A stretch of DNA of 40,865 bases from a virus: UHGV virus genome UHGV-0180691, one strand, 5' to 3'. Made by a program: the position numbers and the translations under genes. Within the stretch, counting starts at the first letter, position 1, and the number at the start of each line of letters is the position of its first letter. The notes below the pieces were generated by a model that was not told the origin of the DNA, did no database searches, and was given only the letters and a program-made list of their open reading frames with translations. Positions 5 through 20,881 of this stretch are shown piece by piece.

Positions 5-706
5 TTGATATGGCTAGTCCTGAGAAACAATCCTTACAAAGGAGTTGATTTGAGCCTGGTTGAACTTAAGGACACCCTTTCGGGGGTGTCTACTTTTGCA
101 TGGATGTTCAGTGTTGTAAGTATAATTCTTGTCTTTATAGGTTGGTTCGTTACTTACAATAACTCGTTAAAAATTGCTACTCGTTCCGAGTCAAAGTCAA
201 TAATAGATGCTATTGCTAAAATTTTAAATGAAGTTTCAGATTTATCCCTCGAATATTGGGTTAATAAATCTGTTTCTCCAAGTGCGAACCCTTTTAAAAG
301 AGCAGCGAATTCTAATCCTTTTAAAAAGAAAAGGTTAGAGTCTCCCACGGGGTTATCCACACCCAGCGCAAAATTATTCATGACTGCTATTCATGGGAAG
401 TCGATACAAATAAATAAGTACATTGACTTTTTGCGTAGCAGGGGATTTGTAATATCTGACTCATTTTTCACTCAAGTTCTCATTAAAGCCACTATGGAAT
501 ATGAGAAATCATTTGTATACAGTAAAACTTACAGGGTGACACGTGCTCAAGAGGTTGCAAGTGCTTGCACTGATTTTATGATGCACTTGTACGATGAATT
601 TCAAAGAAATTATCCTCCTCGAATGCCATTTTCAATATGCGATAAAATAAGAAAATTAGATGATGATATTGACAAATGGTATCAAGGGCTTTATGAGCGG
701 CAATAA
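5..706 (+). CDS. hypothetical membrane protein; AT-rich accessory gene beside integrase (5' end may lie beyond the window)
   Basis: Reading frame is open to the window start (track begins with TTG at 5; first in-frame ATG at 104). Hydrophobic N-terminal segment FAWMFSVVSIILVFIGWFV. Visibly AT-rich compared with neighbouring phage genes (by eye, not computed). Convergent with int. No motif recognised. Confidence 0.4.
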   Translation: MIWLVLRNNPYKGVDLSLVELKDTLSGVSTFAWMFSVVSIILVFIGWFVTYNNSLKIATRSESKSIIDAIAKILNEVSDLSLEYWVNKSVSPSANPFKRAANSNPFKKKRLESPTGLSTPSAKLFMTAIHGKSIQINKYIDFLRSRGFVISDSFFTQVLIKATMEYEKSFVYSKTYRVTRAQEVASACTDFMMHLYDEFQRNYPPRMPFSICDKIRKLDDDIDKWYQGLYERQ

Positions 707-719: not shown

Positions 720-1883
720 TTAAGATTTTTTTTCTATCGATGTCCTTCCATCATACTCAGTCAGGTATTTTCCGTAATGGCGGAACAGCATTTCCGGTCC
801 CTTATGCCCCATTTGTCCCGCAAGCCAAAACAGGTTAGCTCCTTGACTGATATGTCTGGTGGCGAACGTATGCCTAGTCTGATATGGGTTTCTATAACGA
901 ATACCAGCCTTACGTAATGTTGGAACCCATGCTTTTTTTCTAATTGCATCAGCACTGGCCCAAGGTTTGTTCCTTTTTGGGTCTTCGAATATCATTTCAC
1001 CTTTCATAAAAGTGAACAGTTTCTGGCTGTCGAGAGCCGCCAATGCTTCTTCAGTCAGTTCTACTTTCCTTGTGCCTGCTTTTGTTTTTGTTGCTTTAAT
1101 GACACCAACTACACTGGCATTTTGAACGTGTGCTGTCCTGCCTACAAAGTCGATATCACGCCAACGAAGAGCACACAACTCAGAACTACGCAGCCCGGTT
1201 TGTATAGCGAACCGAAAAAGGTTCTCACACTGCTTATTGCCAGTTGCTGAGAGCAATGCGTCAACTTCTGTTGGCGTCAAAGGATCTACCACATAACTAC
1301 TTTCTGCCTCTGATTTATCACTTTGGTAACGTGAGGCTGTCACTAGTGATACAGGGTTAATCTGAAGAATACCATCCGTCACCGCCTCATCCAAAGCAGA
1401 ACGCAGGAATGACAGCTGGTTTCGAATAGTCTTTAATGTGGTTTTCTGGCTCTGGATCCATGTCTTCAATGCAGCTGGCGTCAACTCACTTGCAGGAAAA
1501 ATATGAAGTGCTGACAGCGCGCTTCGGCATTTCTTATATCCGCCAATTGTTGAAGGGGACAGTTTCCTCGTTTCGCATATCACCAAATATTCGTCCAAGT
1601 ACATCTTCACAGTTTTACCGGCGGCAGCGTTGCCAAAAATTCTTAACCGGTTAGAACGAGGAAAGTATTCCGCATAAACGAAAGTCCCCCTCTCGATCTT
1701 GTTATATATTTCTCCGAGTGTGCGCTCGGCGTACTTAATGTTTTTTGGAGTTACGTCCAGATTAGAAAGGGGCTCACGGCATTTTACCCCTTTATAAGTG
1801 AAGGTAATATTTATGGTTTCACCGTTGCGATGTTTCCTGATGGTTACGCCGCGTGGGAGTTTAGGCGATTCTGTCGTGCCCAT
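720..1883 (-). CDS. int: phage tyrosine integrase
   Basis: 387 aa; C-terminal catalytic region with conserved R...HxxR...Y context (RHTFATRHISQGANLFWLAGQMGHKGPEMLFRHYGKY); located at prophage end with overlapping excisionase-like gene upstream. Confidence 0.9.
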   Translation of the reverse strand: MGTTESPKLPRGVTIRKHRNGETINITFTYKGVKCREPLSNLDVTPKNIKYAERTLGEIYNKIERGTFVYAEYFPRSNRLRIFGNAAAGKTVKMYLDEYLVICETRKLSPSTIGGYKKCRSALSALHIFPASELTPAALKTWIQSQKTTLKTIRNQLSFLRSALDEAVTDGILQINPVSLVTASRYQSDKSEAESSYVVDPLTPTEVDALLSATGNKQCENLFRFAIQTGLRSSELCALRWRDIDFVGRTAHVQNASVVGVIKATKTKAGTRKVELTEEALAALDSQKLFTFMKGEMIFEDPKRNKPWASADAIRKKAWVPTLRKAGIRYRNPYQTRHTFATRHISQGANLFWLAGQMGHKGPEMLFRHYGKYLTEYDGRTSIEKKS

Positions 1884-2062
1884 TTTGCAACCTCACTAAG
1901 ATCAATCCATCTTTCCTTAACGCCTTCGACCTTTAGCACCTGAACCCCTTCACGCCACACTCCGCGCTGTATGCGCTTATTAATAGCATCAGGGGTTTCG
2001 CCAGTCTCTTTGCAATAAGTTGAGATGGGAACACAATCGAGGCTCAGCATATACTTCTCCAT
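1844..2062 (-). CDS. xis: excisionase-like small DNA-binding protein
   Basis: 72 aa basic protein immediately upstream of and overlapping int start; position typical of xis. Confidence 0.55.
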   Translation of the reverse strand: MEKYMLSLDCVPISTYCKETGETPDAINKRIQRGVWREGVQVLKVEGVKERWIDLSEVAKWARQNRLNSHAA

Positions 2063-2084: not shown

Positions 2085-2657
2085 TTAATATTTGTCGCTG
2101 GTGGTAGGGATCAGTTTCTGCCAAATTGCTGACACGTATTTTGCCTGATGGCGCGCATCAGCCAGGGCATTGTGCACATCGCCAATAAAAGGCATGTCAC
2201 GCTTCGGATCGAAACCGACACTGCGACCGAGCGTAACAATAGTGCGCACATCGTGATCGTTCCAAAAGGCCCAAGGGCAAATGCGGCCGGCGCGTTCGTA
2301 AGCTCCACGCAGAATCACATTGTCAAAGGTGGCACCGTTACCCCAGACCTTCATGTATTTGGGATTATCTGCGTGCCGGTGAATGAAATGGCTCAGTTCC
2401 GACAGTGCATCAGTGATAGGCATCGCATCATCAACGCAAATAGCTGAGCGCGCTTCTGAGCTTTGTTTGAGCCACCAAAGAATAGTATCTCCGTCCGGTA
2501 CCGCACCCTGATCCATTGCGCTTTCAAGCGAGACGGCCGTATAGAATTCTTGGCCAAGTTCACATGTATGAGGGTTAAAAAAGACGGCACCAATTGACAC
2601 GATCGGCGCGTTTGGCTTTTTTCCCATTGATTCGAGGTCAATCATTAAGTCGTTCAA
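2085..2657 (-). CDS. putative 3'-5' exonuclease (DnaQ-like fold, phage early-left region)
   Basis: 190 aa; acidic N-terminal motif MIDLESMG resembling exonuclease motif I; 4-bp ATGA overlap with upstream ORF suggests translational coupling. Family assignment from memory, not searched. Confidence 0.5.
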   Translation of the reverse strand: MNDLMIDLESMGKKPNAPIVSIGAVFFNPHTCELGQEFYTAVSLESAMDQGAVPDGDTILWWLKQSSEARSAICVDDAMPITDALSELSHFIHRHADNPKYMKVWGNGATFDNVILRGAYERAGRICPWAFWNDHDVRTIVTLGRSVGFDPKRDMPFIGDVHNALADARHQAKYVSAIWQKLIPTTSDKY

Positions 2658-2947
2658 TTGCTTTCTCCATTGTTAATTCTTGGCTTTTGATTCACTGGGG
2701 GGGGGGGGTAGCGCGAGTCGGCGTTGTCGCTAACGTGGCAATAATGAGCCCCGTCAGGACGAGTACAAATTGTCCCGCACCTATCACATGCCAATATTGC
2801 TTCCAGCTCCGCAATCCGCTCCTCTGCTTTTGACAACTGCTCGAGAAGTTCTTCTGCTAACGTCACACGCATCACGACTTTCTGACAGTCGTGGCGTTTG
2901 GCTCTGGCGATTGTGCCGCGCAGAGTCGCATATTTGTTTGTGGTCAT
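2654..2947 (-). CDS. hypothetical small protein containing a poly-proline stretch encoded by a G12/C12 homopolymer
   Basis: 97 aa ORF; coiled-coil-like segment (EELLEQLSKAEERIAELEAIL) and CxxC; in operon context with overlapping neighbours. Confidence 0.4.
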   Translation of the reverse strand: MTTNKYATLRGTIARAKRHDCQKVVMRVTLAEELLEQLSKAEERIAELEAILACDRCGTICTRPDGAHYCHVSDNADSRYPPPPVNQKPRINNGESN

Positions 2948-3141
2948 TGGACGGACTCCTGACGAAGATGGTTAATTTCGGCGTCAAGGCTCATTCGCTG
3001 GTCCATCGATTCCGTCAAGGCGGCAAATGTAACGTCCAAGCGAGTGGCTACCTCACGCATCAGAGAGGCTTCTGCTGGTGGCAGTTTCCCCGCCGCAGCA
3101 TGGGCTGCGGCTACCAGTTCTTTTATCTTCATGCGTGGCAT
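2944..3141 (-). CDS. hypothetical small early protein
   Basis: 65 aa ORF with overlapping start/stop to neighbours on the same strand. Confidence 0.35.
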   Translation of the reverse strand: MPRMKIKELVAAAHAAAGKLPPAEASLMREVATRLDVTFAALTESMDQRMSLDAEINHLRQESVQ

Positions 3142-3668
3142 GCGCGTGATTCCATAAGCTCATTGAAACGGTTAATGAACAAGCCATATGCCTGGCCTGG
3201 GCGAAGTGGAACGATCTGGATAATGTCGCTGGCCGGAATACCTTCGAGGCAAGGCCAGAGTGAACCGTCGTCGATATCCAGATCGCGGCGTTCAGTGGCA
3301 AGCATCACCAGATCGGCATATTTCACTACCGCTGACATATCAGAGGTTATGCTGAATTTGGTGCGGATCAGGTCATCAACCATCGTTTCGATGCGTTGAT
3401 AATCCGGCAGAAGTGCTTTGAGAGGAGCAGGGATGTCCTGGCAATACGCTTCGGCCGCGTCATGCATCAGGGCTTCAAAGGCAAACTCTGGCGGCACAAT
3501 TTGGCTGCACAGCACCGAGTGCTGGGCCACGCTGTAAAATTCCGGCAGATGACCAGTGAAGCGGCAGATGTGTGAAAGTGCGGTCGCAATATCCTCGATC
3601 TCCACATCGTCAGCGGTTGAATTGAGGTAATCGAATTTCTTTCCTGAAAGTGTCTGGATATAACTCAT
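3129..3668 (-). CDS. yfdR: HD-domain phosphohydrolase (YfdR-like 5'-deoxynucleotidase family)
   Basis: 179 aa; HD motif context (ALMHDAAEAY) and upstream His (ALSHICRF); size and neighbourhood match the CPS-53-type early-left block. Confidence 0.65.
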   Translation of the reverse strand: MSYIQTLSGKKFDYLNSTADDVEIEDIATALSHICRFTGHLPEFYSVAQHSVLCSQIVPPEFAFEALMHDAAEAYCQDIPAPLKALLPDYQRIETMVDDLIRTKFSITSDMSAVVKYADLVMLATERRDLDIDDGSLWPCLEGIPASDIIQIVPLRPGQAYGLFINRFNELMESRACHA

Positions 3669-3803: not shown

Positions 3804-4634
3804 TTACGCTTTAAAGTTACCGATAAAGGTTTCAACCGGCTTGTCGGTGAACTTCTCTATCAGCAGGTCACGGAACTCGTTGGCGATAGCTTCTTCCTGG
3901 GCTTCCAGTTGAACGATGCGGAGTACAAACACCGGTTCCCCGCTTTTAAGCAGGCTGTTACGCAGGCTAAAGCGGCGTTCGCCTAGGCCTTCATATGGCA
4001 CGCATTTGAACTCGAAGGCGACAGGCATCACGTCTTTACTGCTGGCTTCAACGCTCTGCATCAGGGACTTTCTGCCGCCAAAATCTTCGTCTTCATGAGC
4101 TGCTTCCGAGACTTGTTTGATATTGACGCGACGAACGGCACCAGCTGCCTGCGCGATGGACAACACATTCCCGTCGGCATCAAATGCGCTCAGGAAGTCG
4201 GCCCAGTCCTCCAGCCATTCAGCAATTTCCTTCTGGCCCAGTCGATCGCCATTTACCTGAAGTAGGGCTCGGAATGGCGCTGTCTTTTTGAGGGTGATAG
4301 ATGCGACGTTATCAGCATGGCCAGGGTTAGCCAGAGTACCGATATTGAACACGGAGCGTGCGGTCATGTTGTCAGCATCGATAAAGCATCGCGCTGGTTC
4401 AGCTTCGTTGGCATAGCCAGCTGCATAACGCACAAAGTCAGGAATGCTGGTTGTGGTCATGGCACCGCGAAAACGAAAACGCTCCAGATCGAAACGCTCA
4501 AGGCTTTCTACGTTTACGCCATCAGGGAGCAGGGCAGTAGGGCATGCTGTTTCTTTAACTGCAGTAAGGTGATAACCGGAAAGAACAAGGTCTTTCACCT
4601 GCTGCAGGGCATTGCCGTCTAAAATCTGGGACAT
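3804..4634 (-). CDS. conserved phage early protein, YfdQ-like (DUF2303-type), function unknown
   Basis: 276 aa; size and position between YfdR-like and YfdP-like ORFs; assignment from memory of prophage CPS-53 gene order, not searched. Confidence 0.5.
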   Translation of the reverse strand: MSQILDGNALQQVKDLVLSGYHLTAVKETACPTALLPDGVNVESLERFDLERFRFRGAMTTTSIPDFVRYAAGYANEAEPARCFIDADNMTARSVFNIGTLANPGHADNVASITLKKTAPFRALLQVNGDRLGQKEIAEWLEDWADFLSAFDADGNVLSIAQAAGAVRRVNIKQVSEAAHEDEDFGGRKSLMQSVEASSKDVMPVAFEFKCVPYEGLGERRFSLRNSLLKSGEPVFVLRIVQLEAQEEAIANEFRDLLIEKFTDKPVETFIGNFKA

Positions 4635-4687: not shown

Positions 4688-5059
4688 TCACTGTGCCGCT
4701 TTAAGCTTTCCGTCAACGCCGCCGTTGATCCCGAACAGCTGCCCCTGATCTTCCTGCAGGATGGTCAGCTTGCCGCCTTTGTTAACCCACATTGGTGTTT
4801 CGGTGGTGTCTTCTTCGGAGGCTTTACCGCGCGGGGTTGGGGTGACGTAGTTCAGCTTGTGCTTGATCTTGACGCGCTTCTCTTCGACGGAGTTACCCAT
4901 ACGCTCAATATCAAAGGTGAGGACTACTTTGCCTTTGGTACCGTTGTTCAGAACGCCAAGCGCGGTAGTGTTTAAAGCTGCCGCGATCTTGTTCATGAAC
5001 ACGCCGGCATCCAGTTCGCCCAGGAAATCGGGCACTACGGTCATGCGGTCATTACTCAT
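4688..5059 (-). CDS. conserved phage early protein, YfdP-like, function unknown
   Basis: 123 aa; position and size consistent with yfdP of CPS-53-like early regions. Confidence 0.45.
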   Translation of the reverse strand: MSNDRMTVVPDFLGELDAGVFMNKIAAALNTTALGVLNNGTKGKVVLTFDIERMGNSVEEKRVKIKHKLNYVTPTPRGKASEEDTTETPMWVNKGGKLTILQEDQGQLFGINGGVDGKLKAAQ

Positions 5060-5777: not shown

Positions 5778-6473
5778 TTATCCGTGCCGTTTAACTGACT
5801 GCGACTGGCTGATCATTACCTTGCCGAAAACGTAAAATCTGTCTTCATTGGACTTATCCACTGACCACTCCCGATATTTAGGGTTATCGGAAATGACAAG
5901 AATTTTATCTGGGATCATCTGTAATCTTTTGACGTAAATTTTATCATCAAAACCAAAGACATAAATCCCATCACCATCAAACTCATTAATCGAAATATCA
6001 ACGAATATCAAATCACCTGGTTCAATGGTATCAGCCATGCTGTCACCACGAACGTTAATCACTTTGACCGTATCTGGTGTTCTCCCACCAAATAATGCGG
6101 CGGCTCTTTCGTTGTTGTACTCAATGGACCTGATGACATCGACGACATCACTACCTTGTATATGGCCCATGCCAGCACTGGCGCTGACATCGAGCAACTC
6201 GACTCTAAACACAGGGTCACCCTCTCCATAAGCTGGATTTTTACCACTGGATTTACATACAGTATTTTCATTTGGAGATGGTGTAAAGAGTTCTGCCACG
6301 CTGACACCAAGTGCCGTAGCATATTTGCTAAGCGATTGTTCAGTAAATGACTTTTGTTTTCCAGTCTCAACCCGTGAGACGTTCGCACCGTCAATACCTA
6401 CAGCTTCAGCAAGATCTGAAATTTTCATGCCCTTTTCGAGGCGTAATTCTCTAATGCGGTTTCCTATGTTCAT
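5778..6473 (-). CDS. cI: CI-like prophage repressor (N-terminal HTH, C-terminal LexA/S24-like autopeptidase domain)
   Basis: 231 aa; N-terminal HTH (IRELRLEKGMKISDLAEAVGIDGANVSRVETG); C-terminal domain with GDSM and VKRL context typical of S24 Ser/Lys dyad; divergent from cro-like gene. Confidence 0.9.
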   Translation of the reverse strand: MNIGNRIRELRLEKGMKISDLAEAVGIDGANVSRVETGKQKSFTEQSLSKYATALGVSVAELFTPSPNENTVCKSSGKNPAYGEGDPVFRVELLDVSASAGMGHIQGSDVVDVIRSIEYNNERAAALFGGRTPDTVKVINVRGDSMADTIEPGDLIFVDISINEFDGDGIYVFGFDDKIYVKRLQMIPDKILVISDNPKYREWSVDKSNEDRFYVFGKVMISQSQSVKRHG

Positions 6474-16940: not shown

Positions 16941-17063
16941 GAATAGCTCGTCCTTGAGCACACGGGTATTTCTGAACGACGGCTTTACCTGACATAGCAA
17001 AGCACCGTTAAATTGTAGAAAAGACTCGATATTTAACAAGCGAAGCGCAGCAATGTAAAAAAA

Positions 17064-17092
17064 AATGCCCTCACATGGAGGGCTACCAGAGT
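17064..17092 (-). terminator. rho-independent terminator on minus strand
   Basis: Plus strand shows A9 then GCCCTC-ACATG-GAGGGC; on the minus strand this is a GC stem followed by U9; lies downstream of the minus-strand gene 17355-17852. Confidence 0.6.
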
Positions 17093-18263: not shown

Positions 18264-18758
18264 ATGGATCATGAATTAAAGCGACTGCAGCTTAACGTCA
18301 GCCAGCTGGCGGCCTTGTCCGGTGTGCATCGCCAGACTGTGTCAGCCAGGCTGAAAAATGTCCGTCCGGCAGGTGGCAACGACAGCAACCTGAAACTGTA
18401 TGGCCTGACAGATGTCCTTGCTGAGCTGATGAAAATGCCTGCCCCGGTAGCTGAAGGAGAAATGGAGCCTCAGGACCGTAAAGCCTGGTATCAGTCAGAG
18501 CGTGAAAGGCTGAAGTTTGAACAGGAAGTAGGAGAGCTTATTCCCGCTTCAGATGTTGCACGCGAGTTTGCCGAAATGGCGAAGGCCATGATTCAGGTTC
18601 TTGAGACGTTGCCGGATATTCTTGAGCGCGATTGTGCGCTTAATCCTGCAACGGTTTCCCGCGTCCAGTCGATTATTGACGATCTCCGTGATGAAATTGC
18701 CCGGCGGGTCATGAGTGACGAAGAAAAAGCAGAGGAGGACATCCTGGAGGAGGAATAA
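18264..18758 (+). CDS. terminase small subunit (putative, HTH-containing)
   Basis: ATG 18264 with GGAG upstream; N-terminal HTH-like (LNVSQLAALSGVHRQTVSARL); acidic C-terminus; immediately upstream of and abutting the large terminase gene. Confidence 0.6.
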   Translation: MDHELKRLQLNVSQLAALSGVHRQTVSARLKNVRPAGGNDSNLKLYGLTDVLAELMKMPAPVAEGEMEPQDRKAWYQSERERLKFEQEVGELIPASDVAREFAEMAKAMIQVLETLPDILERDCALNPATVSRVQSIIDDLRDEIARRVMSDEEKAEEDILEEE

Positions 18759-20881
18759 TGTTGGCACTGGCGACCGCCCTCACATTGAAACGTGACACCG
18801 GACACCTGATTAAAGCGCCACGCAGAATGCCTGTATCAGTGGCGGTAGCAAAATATATGCGTGTCCCCACCTCCGGAGGTAATTCCGTCCCCTGGGATCC
18901 GATGGTGGCGCCTTATGTTCTGGAGCCTATGGACTGCCTGGCATCCCGTGAATACGACGCCGTGATATTCGTCGGACCTGCCCGAACGGGTAAAACAAAT
19001 GGTCTGATTGACGGATGGGTGGTTTACAACATCGTCTGTGATCCGTCCGATATGCTGCTGGTGCAAATGACACAGGATAAGGCACAGGAGCACTCAAAAA
19101 AGCGTCTTGCCCGAACATTTCGCTGCAGTCCGGAAGTCAGAAAAAACCTGAGCCCCCGGCATAATGACAACAACGTTCACGATAAGTATTTCCTTTCAGG
19201 TAGCTTCCTGAAAATTGGCTGGCCATCCATCAATGTCATGTCGTCATCAGATTTTAAGTGTGTGGCGCTGACGGATTATGACCGATTCCCTGAGGATATT
19301 GATGGCGAGGGCGACGGCTTCTCACTGGCCTCCAAACGTACAACCACCTTCATGTCCGCCGGGATGACGCTTGTAGAGAGTTCTCCGGGGCGTGATATTC
19401 GTGACAGCAAATGGCGCCGCAAGTCTCCTCATGAAGCTCCACCGACGACCGGTATTCTTTCCCTGTACAACCGTGGCGATCGCCGCCGCTGGTACTGGCC
19501 GTGTCCGCACTGCGGTGAATATTTTCAGCCTGCTATGGAGTCCATGACCGGCTACCGTGATGAACCGGATCCGGTTAAAGCCAGTGAGGCGGCACACCTG
19601 CTTTGTCCGCACTGCAGCGGCATTATCACTGCGGATAAAAAGCGCGAGCTTAACGGCGCAGGAGTCTGGTTGCGGGAAGGGCAGAGTATTGACCGTGACG
19701 GCAATGTATCCGGCGAACCGCGGCGATCGCGCATAGCCAGTTTCTGGATGGAAGGACCCGCAGCCGCTTATCAGACCTGGGCGCAGCTGGTGTACAAGCT
19801 GCTGACAGCTGAGCAGGAGTATGAGGCCACTGGCAGCGAAGAAACCCTCAAGGCGGTAATCAATACCGACTGGGGGCTACCATACCTGCCGCGCGCAGCC
19901 AGCGAACAGAGGCGCGCCGATGTGCTGATGCAGCGGGCGGAGGATTACGGTAAGCGCCTGGTCCCGCCTAAGGTGCGTTTCCTGCTGGCGGCCGTTGACG
20001 TCCAGGGCGGCAAAAAGCGCCGTTTCGTCGTGCAGATTATCGGTTATGGCGAAAACGGTGAACGCTGGCTGGTGGATCGCTACAACATCCGCCAGTCGCT
20101 GCGCTGCAATGAGCATGGCGAGGCGGAGCCGATCCACCCGGGCGCGTATCCGGAGGACTGGCAACTGCTGGTCTCCGATGTGCTGGAAAAAACGTATGCG
20201 CTGCAGTCTGACCCGGCGCGGCGTATGCCGGTGCTGGCGATGGCCGTCGACAGCGGCGGTGAAGAAGGCGTGACGGACAACGCGTATAAATTCTGGCGAC
20301 AGTGTCGGCGTGACGGCCTGGGTAAACGTGTTTACCTGGTTAAGGGCGACAGCACAAAGCGTCAGAAAATCATTACCAAAACCCACCCGAATAATACCGA
20401 ACGCAGCGACCGTCGCGCCGACGCGCGCGGCGAGGTGCCGGTGTATCTGCTTCAGACCGACCTGCTTAAGGACCAGCTCAGCAACAACCTGGACCGCGAA
20501 ACCCCCGGTGGCGGATACATCCATTTTCCTGACTGGCTGGGGGAGTGGTTCTACGAGGAACTGACCTATGAAGAACGCGGTGTTGATGGCAAATGGCGAA
20601 AACCCGGCAAGGGCGCCAACGAAGCCTTTGACCTGTTCTGCTATGCGCACGCCGTGGCGGTTCTGCGCGGGTACGAAAAAATTCGCGACTGGGAAAAACC
20701 TCCTGCATGGGCTGAGCCGCAGGATCTCAATCCAAATATTCATGAAGGGACCCCCCCCCGGGAGATAACCGTGAAAAAAACAAAACCCGTTCAGTCGCCT
20801 GTGCAGGCTGAACCTGAAAAGGACACAGCCCTCTCCGGCAGCTGGCTCGGGTCTTCCGTTAAGGGAGGCTGGTTGCTGTGA
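18758..20881 (+). CDS. terminase large subunit (lambda GpA-like)
   Basis: 707 aa; Walker A-like VGPARTGKT; CxxC...CxxC zinc-like motif (CPHCGEYF...CPHCSG); size and context of GpA-family terminases. Confidence 0.9.
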   Translation: MLALATALTLKRDTGHLIKAPRRMPVSVAVAKYMRVPTSGGNSVPWDPMVAPYVLEPMDCLASREYDAVIFVGPARTGKTNGLIDGWVVYNIVCDPSDMLLVQMTQDKAQEHSKKRLARTFRCSPEVRKNLSPRHNDNNVHDKYFLSGSFLKIGWPSINVMSSSDFKCVALTDYDRFPEDIDGEGDGFSLASKRTTTFMSAGMTLVESSPGRDIRDSKWRRKSPHEAPPTTGILSLYNRGDRRRWYWPCPHCGEYFQPAMESMTGYRDEPDPVKASEAAHLLCPHCSGIITADKKRELNGAGVWLREGQSIDRDGNVSGEPRRSRIASFWMEGPAAAYQTWAQLVYKLLTAEQEYEATGSEETLKAVINTDWGLPYLPRAASEQRRADVLMQRAEDYGKRLVPPKVRFLLAAVDVQGGKKRRFVVQIIGYGENGERWLVDRYNIRQSLRCNEHGEAEPIHPGAYPEDWQLLVSDVLEKTYALQSDPARRMPVLAMAVDSGGEEGVTDNAYKFWRQCRRDGLGKRVYLVKGDSTKRQKIITKTHPNNTERSDRRADARGEVPVYLLQTDLLKDQLSNNLDRETPGGGYIHFPDWLGEWFYEELTYEERGVDGKWRKPGKGANEAFDLFCYAHAVAVLRGYEKIRDWEKPPAWAEPQDLNPNIHEGTPPREITVKKTKPVQSPVQAEPEKDTALSGSWLGSSVKGGWLL

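Follow-up and report, generated by a model that had tools for sequence, protein, structure and literature searches.

The stretch of DNA analysed here (the window) comprises 40,865 nucleotides (nt) of the virus genome UHGV-0180691 and originates from a 51.9-kb contig of a human metagenome (ENA ERZ1035001 NODE_122). On its minus strand, directly upstream of a DnaQ-like exonuclease gene, lies an open reading frame (ORF) of 97 amino acids (aa), near the 3' end of which 12 consecutive cytosines occur (C12; G12 on the plus strand; Table 1). The string of minus-strand genes to which this ORF belongs is the early-left (pL-type) operon of an LLS-type lambdoid temperate phage of Enterobacter/E. coli. 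Codons 80 - 85 of the ORF read TAC CCC CCC CCC CCA GTG, which corresponds with Y-P-P-P-P-V, the four prolines (PPPP) being encoded by codons 81 - 84. Re-reading of the sequence confirmed this part of an earlier description of the locus (the original prediction), which had reported the twelve G residues and their proline-coding nature near the 3' end of the ORF. Apart from the G12, no homopolymer of the window exceeded 9 nt, the next-longest runs being an A9 (17057 - 17065) and a C9 (20751 - 20759). Assuming independent and identically distributed bases, a run of this type is expected approximately 0.006 times in the window, and dinucleotide-preserving shuffles (n = 100) contained on average 0.01 of such runs per window, one shuffle out of 100 displaying it. 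The tract is real and is statistically exceptional for the window genome. No promoter-like site was found near the tract, and no terminator, meaningful repeat or Rfam family (E ≤ 1) involved it. A plus-strand gene making use of the G12 was rejected too, as only mechanical antisense ORFs were present there.

The 97-aa protein is identical to GenBank DAG32305.1 ('MAG TPA: shock protein B [Caudoviricetes sp.]'), a name that is not supported by Pfam, PHROG, NCBIfam, PADLOC or a fold search. Indeed, significant matches were absent from Pfam, PHROGs, NCBIfam and PADLOC, a coiled-coil TMCCDC2 assignment was rejected as a sub-threshold Pfam match (E = 0.004), and a Foldseek search of PDB and BFVD with the AlphaFold2 model retrieved nothing with E < 1. 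Homologs (n = 100) were nearly all encoded by prophages of the Enterobacter cloacae complex and E. coli/Shigella. Among 5,426 complete E. coli genomes, none contained the C-terminal half of the ORF, the matches concerning the exonuclease or yfdR-like flank only. The AlphaFold2 model (27 sequences; mean predicted local distance difference test score, pLDDT, of 75) displayed confident helices at residues 7 - 17 and 22 - 52, followed by a small Cys/His knuckle (CxxC...CH). Confidence was low from approximately residue 76 onwards, with a pLDDT below 50 at residues 76 - 78 and 86 - 97, so that PPPP and all residues after it fall in a predicted unstructured tail. As a separate observation, the N-terminal 50 residues (MTTNKYATLRGTIARAKRHDCQKVVMRVTLAEELL..AE.RIAEL; window 2798 - 2947, minus strand) were common to dozens of proteins with unrelated C-terminal halves of 30 - 120 residues (P0029 - P0100); the ORF is a mosaic gene with a recombination joint near codon 50.

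Allelic variation was followed in 40 homologous loci, the DNA of which was obtained by looking up exact proteins and by scanning IMG/VR and JGI metagenomes for patterns anchored in the flanks. A segment of 7 - 13 nt, enclosed by CTCGCGCTA and AGTGAATCAAAAGCC as invariant flanks, was found as 13 alleles, among which all three frames occurred. These alleles consisted of CAG followed by C4, C5 (the commonest allele) or C6; AAG followed by C6; CAA followed by C6, C7, C9 or C10; CA followed by C9; the pure C12; and the interrupted segments CAGCCACC, CAGCAGCCC and CAGTAACCTCCC. The original prediction had named a uniform tract length in all homologs as the outcome that would speak against it; the relatives compared displayed instead nine C-run lengths between identical flanks, namely 2, 3, 4, 5, 6, 7, 9, 10 and 12 nt. 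In a 1.59-kb alignment of 23 distinct sequences (approximately 1.45 kb coding), indels in coding DNA were confined to the tract, which occurred in seven length states, and all other indels were situated beyond the exonuclease stop. Similarly, the tract site was the only position with a G/C run of at least 9 nt across all 43 fetched loci. Length differences also separated very close relatives, pointing to recent and recurrent changes. The loci L009 (C9) and L018 (C10) did not differ at any position over approximately 1.5 kb of flanks, the C7 alleles (L022 and L023) were 4 - 5 single-nucleotide polymorphisms (SNPs) away from these two, and the closest pair of C4 and C5 alleles was 13 SNPs apart. 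Sixteen contigs carried the C9 allele, and C10 was recovered from four independent samples, one of them a metagenome-assembled genome from NCBI, indicating that these lengths are not one-off assembly errors. Judged from these comparative data, the tract site is a recurrent slippage hotspot, and more so with a longer run.

The original prediction considered it equally possible that the tract was a sequencing or assembly artefact, in which case the true sequence would be shorter or interrupted (e.g. CAACCCCCCCCC), or the length would have been miscalled by at least one base at low coverage. The source contigs had a coverage of approximately 6x only (6.05 for NODE_122 of ERZ1035001; multi=6 for a MEGAHIT contig), and the pure C12 was encountered in no other record. 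Predicted sibling proteins of the window haplotype with C7 - C16 were absent from a collection of 15 billion proteins too, a search of low power since this haplotype occurred on only three contigs. Furthermore, locus L008 matched the window over 3,860 nt with 100% identity, and shared or related reads may underlie both assemblies, so that this locus was not counted as an independent lineage. Against an artefact, however, the identical C12 was obtained with two assemblers, SPAdes for the source of the window and MEGAHIT in another ENA analysis. In addition, the 12-nt segment was in exact register with the natural 12-nt alleles CAA+C9 and CAGTAACCTCCC, and relatives reached C9 and C10 independently at the same site in many samples. 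Poly-G artefacts of two-colour sequencing chemistry occur at read ends, without correct sequence on both sides, whereas the tract was flanked by correct sequence on either side. An artefact is hence quite unlikely: a tract that is wholly artefactual is improbable, given the agreement between both assemblies and the register shared with relatives, and a miscall of one base in either direction is possible at approximately 6x coverage.

Simulation of tract lengths of 8 - 16 nt yielded three outcomes for the tail and the stop. With C9, C12 or C15, the full tail VNQKPRINNGESN was kept and the stop overlapped the TTG start of the exonuclease gene. With one C more (C10 or C13), the protein ended in SESKAKN at a TAA 15 nt before the TTG, and with one C fewer (C11 or C14), it ended after a single Q at a TGA 34 nt before the TTG. 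All three simulated outcomes were found as natural alleles, which bears out the view, already part of the original prediction, that the tract is prone to slippage and that its length alters both the C-terminus and the stop position. Every frame stopped within 1 - 13 codons (TGA 2692, TAA 2673 and TGA 2654), and the folded part of the protein was never lost. As this part ends before the tract, changes in length leave the gene switched on. Among 57 distinct homologs with this C-terminal domain, 29 carried the frame-0 tail and 28 ended otherwise, namely in Q (10), in SESKAKN (8), at an early TAA after VN (3), after a slip in the next A run (3), or in another way (4). The most widely sampled alleles were truncated ones, such as P0102 (83 aa; 117 index blocks), P0016 (90 aa; 74 contigs) and P0017 (89 aa; 41 index blocks), and the tail of the cultured, viable phage LLS was YSPPVN followed by a stop.

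Two further observations concern the surroundings of the tract. The A4 run that follows it (window 2685 - 2688, minus strand; CAAAAGCC) seems prone to slippage as well, though less so than the tract, the widely sampled 90-aa alleles P0016, P0137 and P0139 ending in VNQKAKN, as would result from one extra A in this run, to judge by the proteins. An alternative-frame ORF of 40 aa (window 2692 - 2814, minus strand), encoding a hydrophobic, transmembrane-like peptide (..VIGAGQFVLVLTGLIIATLATT..), ends at the tract, and P0097, P0026 and P0027 were read partly in its frame, showing that frameshifted alleles upstream of the tract also circulate. The latter alleles probably result from decay or sequencing error, an overlapping gene being less likely.

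Taken together, the C12 is rather likely a real, hypermutable homopolymer in the dispensable, unstructured tail of a small accessory gene, representing a hotspot under relaxed selection and not a programmed switch. The ancestral site may have consisted of a short C run after CAG or CAA (TAC AGC CCC CCA; Y-S-P-P), to which slipped-strand mispairing during replication would repeatedly have added C residues or from which it would have removed them. In the lineage of the window, point substitutions (CAA or CAG to CCC) would then have removed the interrupting bases, leaving the pure C12. A length change would swap the short tail and move the stop to 34, 15 or -4 nt relative to the TTG without switching the gene off. 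Tolerance of the tract would follow from the lack of structure in the tail and from the prompt termination of all frames. Populations are predicted to contain the three short tails and the three stop positions side by side, with little effect; comparative and computational arguments suggest that length changes probably matter little.

Several points weigh against this explanation. The slippage mechanism and near-neutrality are what we infer, neutrality from comparative data only, and the hypermutability ascribed to the C12 allele of the window derives from relatives and the literature. The full frame-0 tail was the most diverse class (29 out of 57 homologs) and its sequence was fairly well kept, so that weak selection on the tail or on the overlapping Shine-Dalgarno (SD) region is possible. 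Moreover, the nearest relatives of the window were at least 65 SNPs away over 1.5 kb, so that the route to C12 proposed above is tentative.

The tract resembles the simple sequence repeat (SSR) contingency loci with poly-G/C runs of Neisseria, Haemophilus and Campylobacter and of the Klebsiella pneumoniae gene rmpA (10.1101/2025.09.12.675794), in that it is an intragenic G/C run of at least 9 nt, heterogeneous in length within close lineages, with slipped-strand mispairing as the presumed mechanism. In Enterobacteriaceae, G/C runs of at least 9 nt are experimentally phase-variable, as for the G10 of Klebsiella rmpA, and G9 - G11 tracts phase-vary in Klebsiella (10.1101/2025.09.12.675794), so that hypermutability is to be expected of a run of 12 G/C. 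The C12 exceeds the minimum length of approximately 9 nt for an uninterrupted G/C repeat in SSR-mediated phase-variable loci, as used in the same study. Repeat length was polymorphic among close relatives as well, the own haplotype of the window being recorded as C12 only. Contingency loci have also been described in phages, namely an A9 in agt of T2 and an A6 in rIIA of T4 (Gomez, Barrick & Waters, preprint 10.1101/2025.10.21.683753), and runs of at least 6 nt slip measurably in coliphages (10.1101/2025.10.21.683753). Hypermutable polyG tracts have also been reported in Campylobacter phages, according to papers that cite these reports. The homopolymer of the window similarly occurs in a non-structural, hypothetical phage ORF, a class reported as enriched in SSRs, for which slippage heterogeneity is expected.

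These likenesses would fit a functional phage contingency locus, in which selected switching between C11, C12 and C13 toggles the tail (e.g. a partner-binding or degradation signal) or tunes termination-reinitiation into the exonuclease, xis and int genes, as a form of bet-hedging. Indeed, a length of 12 nt is above the accepted thresholds for phase variation (10.1101/2025.09.12.675794), length was heterogeneous within near-identical lineages, the frame-0 stop overlapped the exonuclease start, proven contingency loci exist in phages, and regulatory and hypothetical genes of phages are enriched in SSRs (10.1101/2025.10.21.683753). In addition, an E. coli lineage with a weakened SD element (GGAA), in which coupling would matter more, carried C7, C9 and C10. 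However, with the tract at codons 81 - 84 out of 97 and all frames ending within 13 codons, no ON/OFF switch is possible, the other frames reaching a stop after 1 or 7 codons. Homopolymers that act as functional switches are typically situated near the 5' end of a gene (PMC2831843) or between domains, as in rmpA (10.1101/2025.09.12.675794), and a frameshift there removes a functional domain, whereas the tract of the window lies 13 codons before the stop and all frames end almost at once, without an OFF state. The nearest published analogue is rmpA2, with a variable poly-G and a product that is truncated at any repeat length (10.1101/2025.09.12.675794). Likewise, the phage loci mentioned above inactivate and restore a gene with a shown trade-off (glucosylation versus restriction for agt; rII versus RexAB for rIIA), whereas a frameshift in the phage of the window does not inactivate the gene. 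Unlike T2 and T4, the phage of the window is temperate, and much of its replication is therefore performed by the host replisome with mismatch repair. Finally, the tail is predicted to be disordered and was missing in approximately half of the natural alleles and in the viable cultured phage LLS, the junction geometry was not conserved, a separate SD element was present, and no effect on RNA structure was predicted. A selected tail-toggling or reinitiation-tuning switch is hence unlikely. The locus has the structural properties of a contingency locus but not the functional ON/OFF one, and is not to be classified as phase-variable.

The original prediction had also described the ORF and the exonuclease gene as overlapping through ATGA. 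The overlap of 4 nt exists, but its sequence is TTGA, composed of the TTG start (2657 - 2655) of the exonuclease gene and the TGA stop (2656 - 2654) of the ORF. The ATGA is found at the 5' end of the ORF, where its ATG overlaps the stop of an upstream 65-aa ORF. Both overlaps are of the kind known for stop/start coupling in phage operons (ATGA or TTGA). A GGAG is situated 7 nt upstream of the TTG, and the first in-frame ATG of the exonuclease gene (2645 - 2643) 12 nt downstream of it. The TTG was present in all homologous loci and the upstream element was conserved, as GGAG at 7 nt or as GGAA in the E. coli lineage. The 190-aa TTG-start form was annotated by both the LLS authors and PGAP, and the Pfam match starts at residue 2 of this form. 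Gene callers differ in this respect, choosing the TTG (190 aa) with GGAG and mostly the ATG (186 aa) with GGAA in the E. coli lineage (window 2643 - 2657, minus strand; loci L009 - L012, L019 and L022 - L025). A synonymous GAC to GAT change between TTG and ATG in L036 is weak evidence for translation of this stretch.

In the natural alleles, the stop of the ORF overlapped the TTG or was positioned 15, 30 or 34 nt upstream of it. As a translationally coupled pair, the locus therefore displayed the overlap alone, and in the window allele alone: the junction geometry differed among homologs, with the stop 15 - 34 nt upstream in approximately half of the alleles, and the downstream start has its own GGAG at optimal spacing, predicted to be accessible, with a probability of being unpaired of approximately 0.73. 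Folding of the mRNA with C5 to C15 did not change the predicted structure (identical minimum free energy of -42.7 kcal/mol), the probability of being unpaired amounting to 0.70 - 0.74 for the SD element and 0.20 - 0.21 for the start. These results do not support the proposal in the original prediction that tract length modulates coupled translation of the exonuclease. The stop-to-TTG distance varies naturally while the TTG and GGAG or GGAA are kept, which argues that initiation at the exonuclease gene does not rely on the overlap. As its start has its own GGAG, translation of the exonuclease is probably independent of the upstream stop position, an independent initiation suggested by comparative and computational arguments. 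It is distinctly unlikely that the C12 acts as a dosage-setting contingency locus, in which the amount of exonuclease, and possibly that of Xis and Int, would differ among progeny with the stochastically reset position of the upstream stop (-4, 15 or 34 nt relative to the TTG), for bet-hedging between lytic and lysogenic growth or in recombination. Under such dosage setting, the expansions that repeatedly led to C7, C9 and C10 in the GGAA-bearing E. coli lineage would be adaptive rather than drift.

The tract might also act at the level of RNA or protein, either through an elongation factor P (EF-P)-dependent pausing of the ribosome on PPPP upstream of the exonuclease start, or through slippage of RNA polymerase, mixing the three tails from one genotype. 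PPPP is reportedly a canonical EF-P-dependent stall motif, and the tract is located 40 - 51 nt upstream of the TTG. In E. coli, RNA polymerase can slip on long homopolymers, as established mainly for A/T runs. However, PPPP was unique to the window allele, relatives having SPP, NPP, RPP, SNLP or frame-shifted ends, so that there is no conserved stall element; among the homologs, only one other lineage carried PPP, at least three consecutive prolines conserved in homologs being expected of such an element. A ribosome paused at the tract would presumably leave the SD element, approximately 30 nt downstream, uncovered. Furthermore, the other frames encode only 1 - 7 residues (Q or SESKAKN) and the run itself was not conserved, unlike in genes with programmed frameshifting or transcriptional slippage, and nothing matching was found in Rfam. 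Action at this level is very improbable.

Table 1. Positions in the window of the C12 tract, its junction with the exonuclease gene, and the surrounding genes.
Feature	Position	Strand	Basis or remark
C12 homopolymer, putative slippage hotspot	2697..2708	-	Sequence; 13 alleles in homologous loci; sole coding-region indel site in 1.59-kb alignment
TGA stop, C11/C14	2692..2694	-	Simulation; natural CAG+C5 alleles, 83 aa: P0102, P0023, loci L016, L027-30
TAA stop, C10/C13	2673..2675	-	Simulation; natural C4, C7, C10 alleles, 89-91 aa: P0017, P0116, P0117, loci L013-15, L018-25
GGAG Shine-Dalgarno-like element	2665..2668	-	7 nt upstream of TTG; GGAG, or GGAA in E. coli lineage
TTGA stop/start overlap, 97-aa ORF (TGA) / exonuclease (TTG)	2654..2657	-	Sequence; TTG in all homologous loci
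97-aa ORF	2654..2947	-	Conserved helical N-terminal module (1-52), Cys/His knuckle (~54-71), disordered tail from ~76
Integrase gene	720-1883	-	Downstream of excisionase
Excisionase gene	1844-2062	-	Downstream of exonuclease
Rv2179c/DnaQ-like 3'-5' exonuclease gene	2085..2657	-	190 aa from TTG, 186 aa from ATG at 2645; Pfam PF16473
65-aa ORF, PHROG 12248 (unknown function)	2944..3141	-	Stop overlaps 97-aa ORF ATG as ATGA 2944-2947
YfdR-like HD-domain dNMP phosphatase gene	3129..3668	-	PHROG 318 E=4e-95; LLS gp37 (PMC12315714)
DUF2303/yfdQ-like gene	3804-4634	-	Same operon
yfdP-like gene	4688-5059	-	Same operon
cI-like repressor gene	5778-6473		

The genes surrounding the tract (Table 1) have the same order as in the cultured Escherichia phage LLS, namely yfdP-yfdQ-yfdR-like genes, two small ORFs, a DnaQ-like exonuclease gene, xis and int, and window and LLS share 95.7% identity over 1.7 kb. 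The paper on LLS describes the same operon as devoid of a Rec module and relates this operon to ST64B and phiNP (PMC12315714). The exonuclease gene matched Pfam PF16473 (Rv2179c-like; E = 1.3e-71) and PHROG 255 (exonuclease; E = 1e-87), its LLS counterpart gp34 being annotated as 'DnaQ-like exonuclease', and the 3' end of the YfdR-like gene overlaps the start of the 65-aa ORF by 13 nt (3129 - 3141). LLS differs in the counterpart of the 97-aa protein, gp35, which has the interrupted CAGCCCCCC and an early TAA (85 aa), and the structural genes of the window are unrelated to those of LLS, the best match of the terminase region being Citrobacter phage Chris1 (76%).

In relatives, the slot between the yfdR-like and exonuclease genes is a hotspot of accessory genes. 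This is the case for phage Eeyore (L002, 3124 - 4600), which carries genes for a queuine tRNA-ribosyltransferase, a DksA-like zinc-finger protein and a hypothetical protein, and for E. coli CX21 (L003, 2639 - 4585), which carries six different hypothetical genes. Beyond the integrase gene (window 5 - 706, plus strand; L007, 5242 - 6294), genes for a membrane protein (218 - 233 aa), a DUF4325 protein and a 307-aa ORF occur on the source contig, the left edge of the window cutting this group. They may be moron- or defence-like cargo or host DNA, with a weak PADLOC match to the '2TM effector' model (E = 0.008). Concerning the other long runs of the window, the C9 at 20751 - 20759 (plus strand) is its second-longest G/C homopolymer and encodes ..TPPPG.. 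in the C-terminal tail of the large terminase gene (18758 - 20881; Pfam GpA_ATPase and GpA_nuclease), approximately 40 codons before the stop and beyond the nuclease domain, which ends at residue 642. Like the C12, this run encodes prolines within a C-terminal tail. When it was used as an internal control, no exact-flank match was found in IMG/VR, and the nearest phage was only 76% identical. The intergenic A9 at 17057 is directly followed by a hairpin (GCCCTC-ACATG-GAGGGC; 17057 - 17090, plus strand), which resembles a terminator as seen from the opposite strand.

The locus is a new instance of a well-known phenomenon, an SSR hotspot, most likely of little consequence. For annotation, the seemingly different proteins of 83, 85, 89, 90, 91, 96 and 97 aa represent one gene with a variable end, and the database name 'shock protein B' is corrected. 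If the reading as a hotspot under relaxed selection holds, a striking G/C run of 12 nt in a phage genome need not be a switch, and the locus would provide a natural and apparently near-neutral means of reporting how fast homopolymers slip in temperate phages of enterobacteria, with an allelic series from C4 to C12 in otherwise near-identical DNA. If, alternatively, tract length tunes the exonuclease, xis and int genes, the newly proposed phage contingency loci would extend to temperate phages and to the setting of dosage rather than ON/OFF switching.

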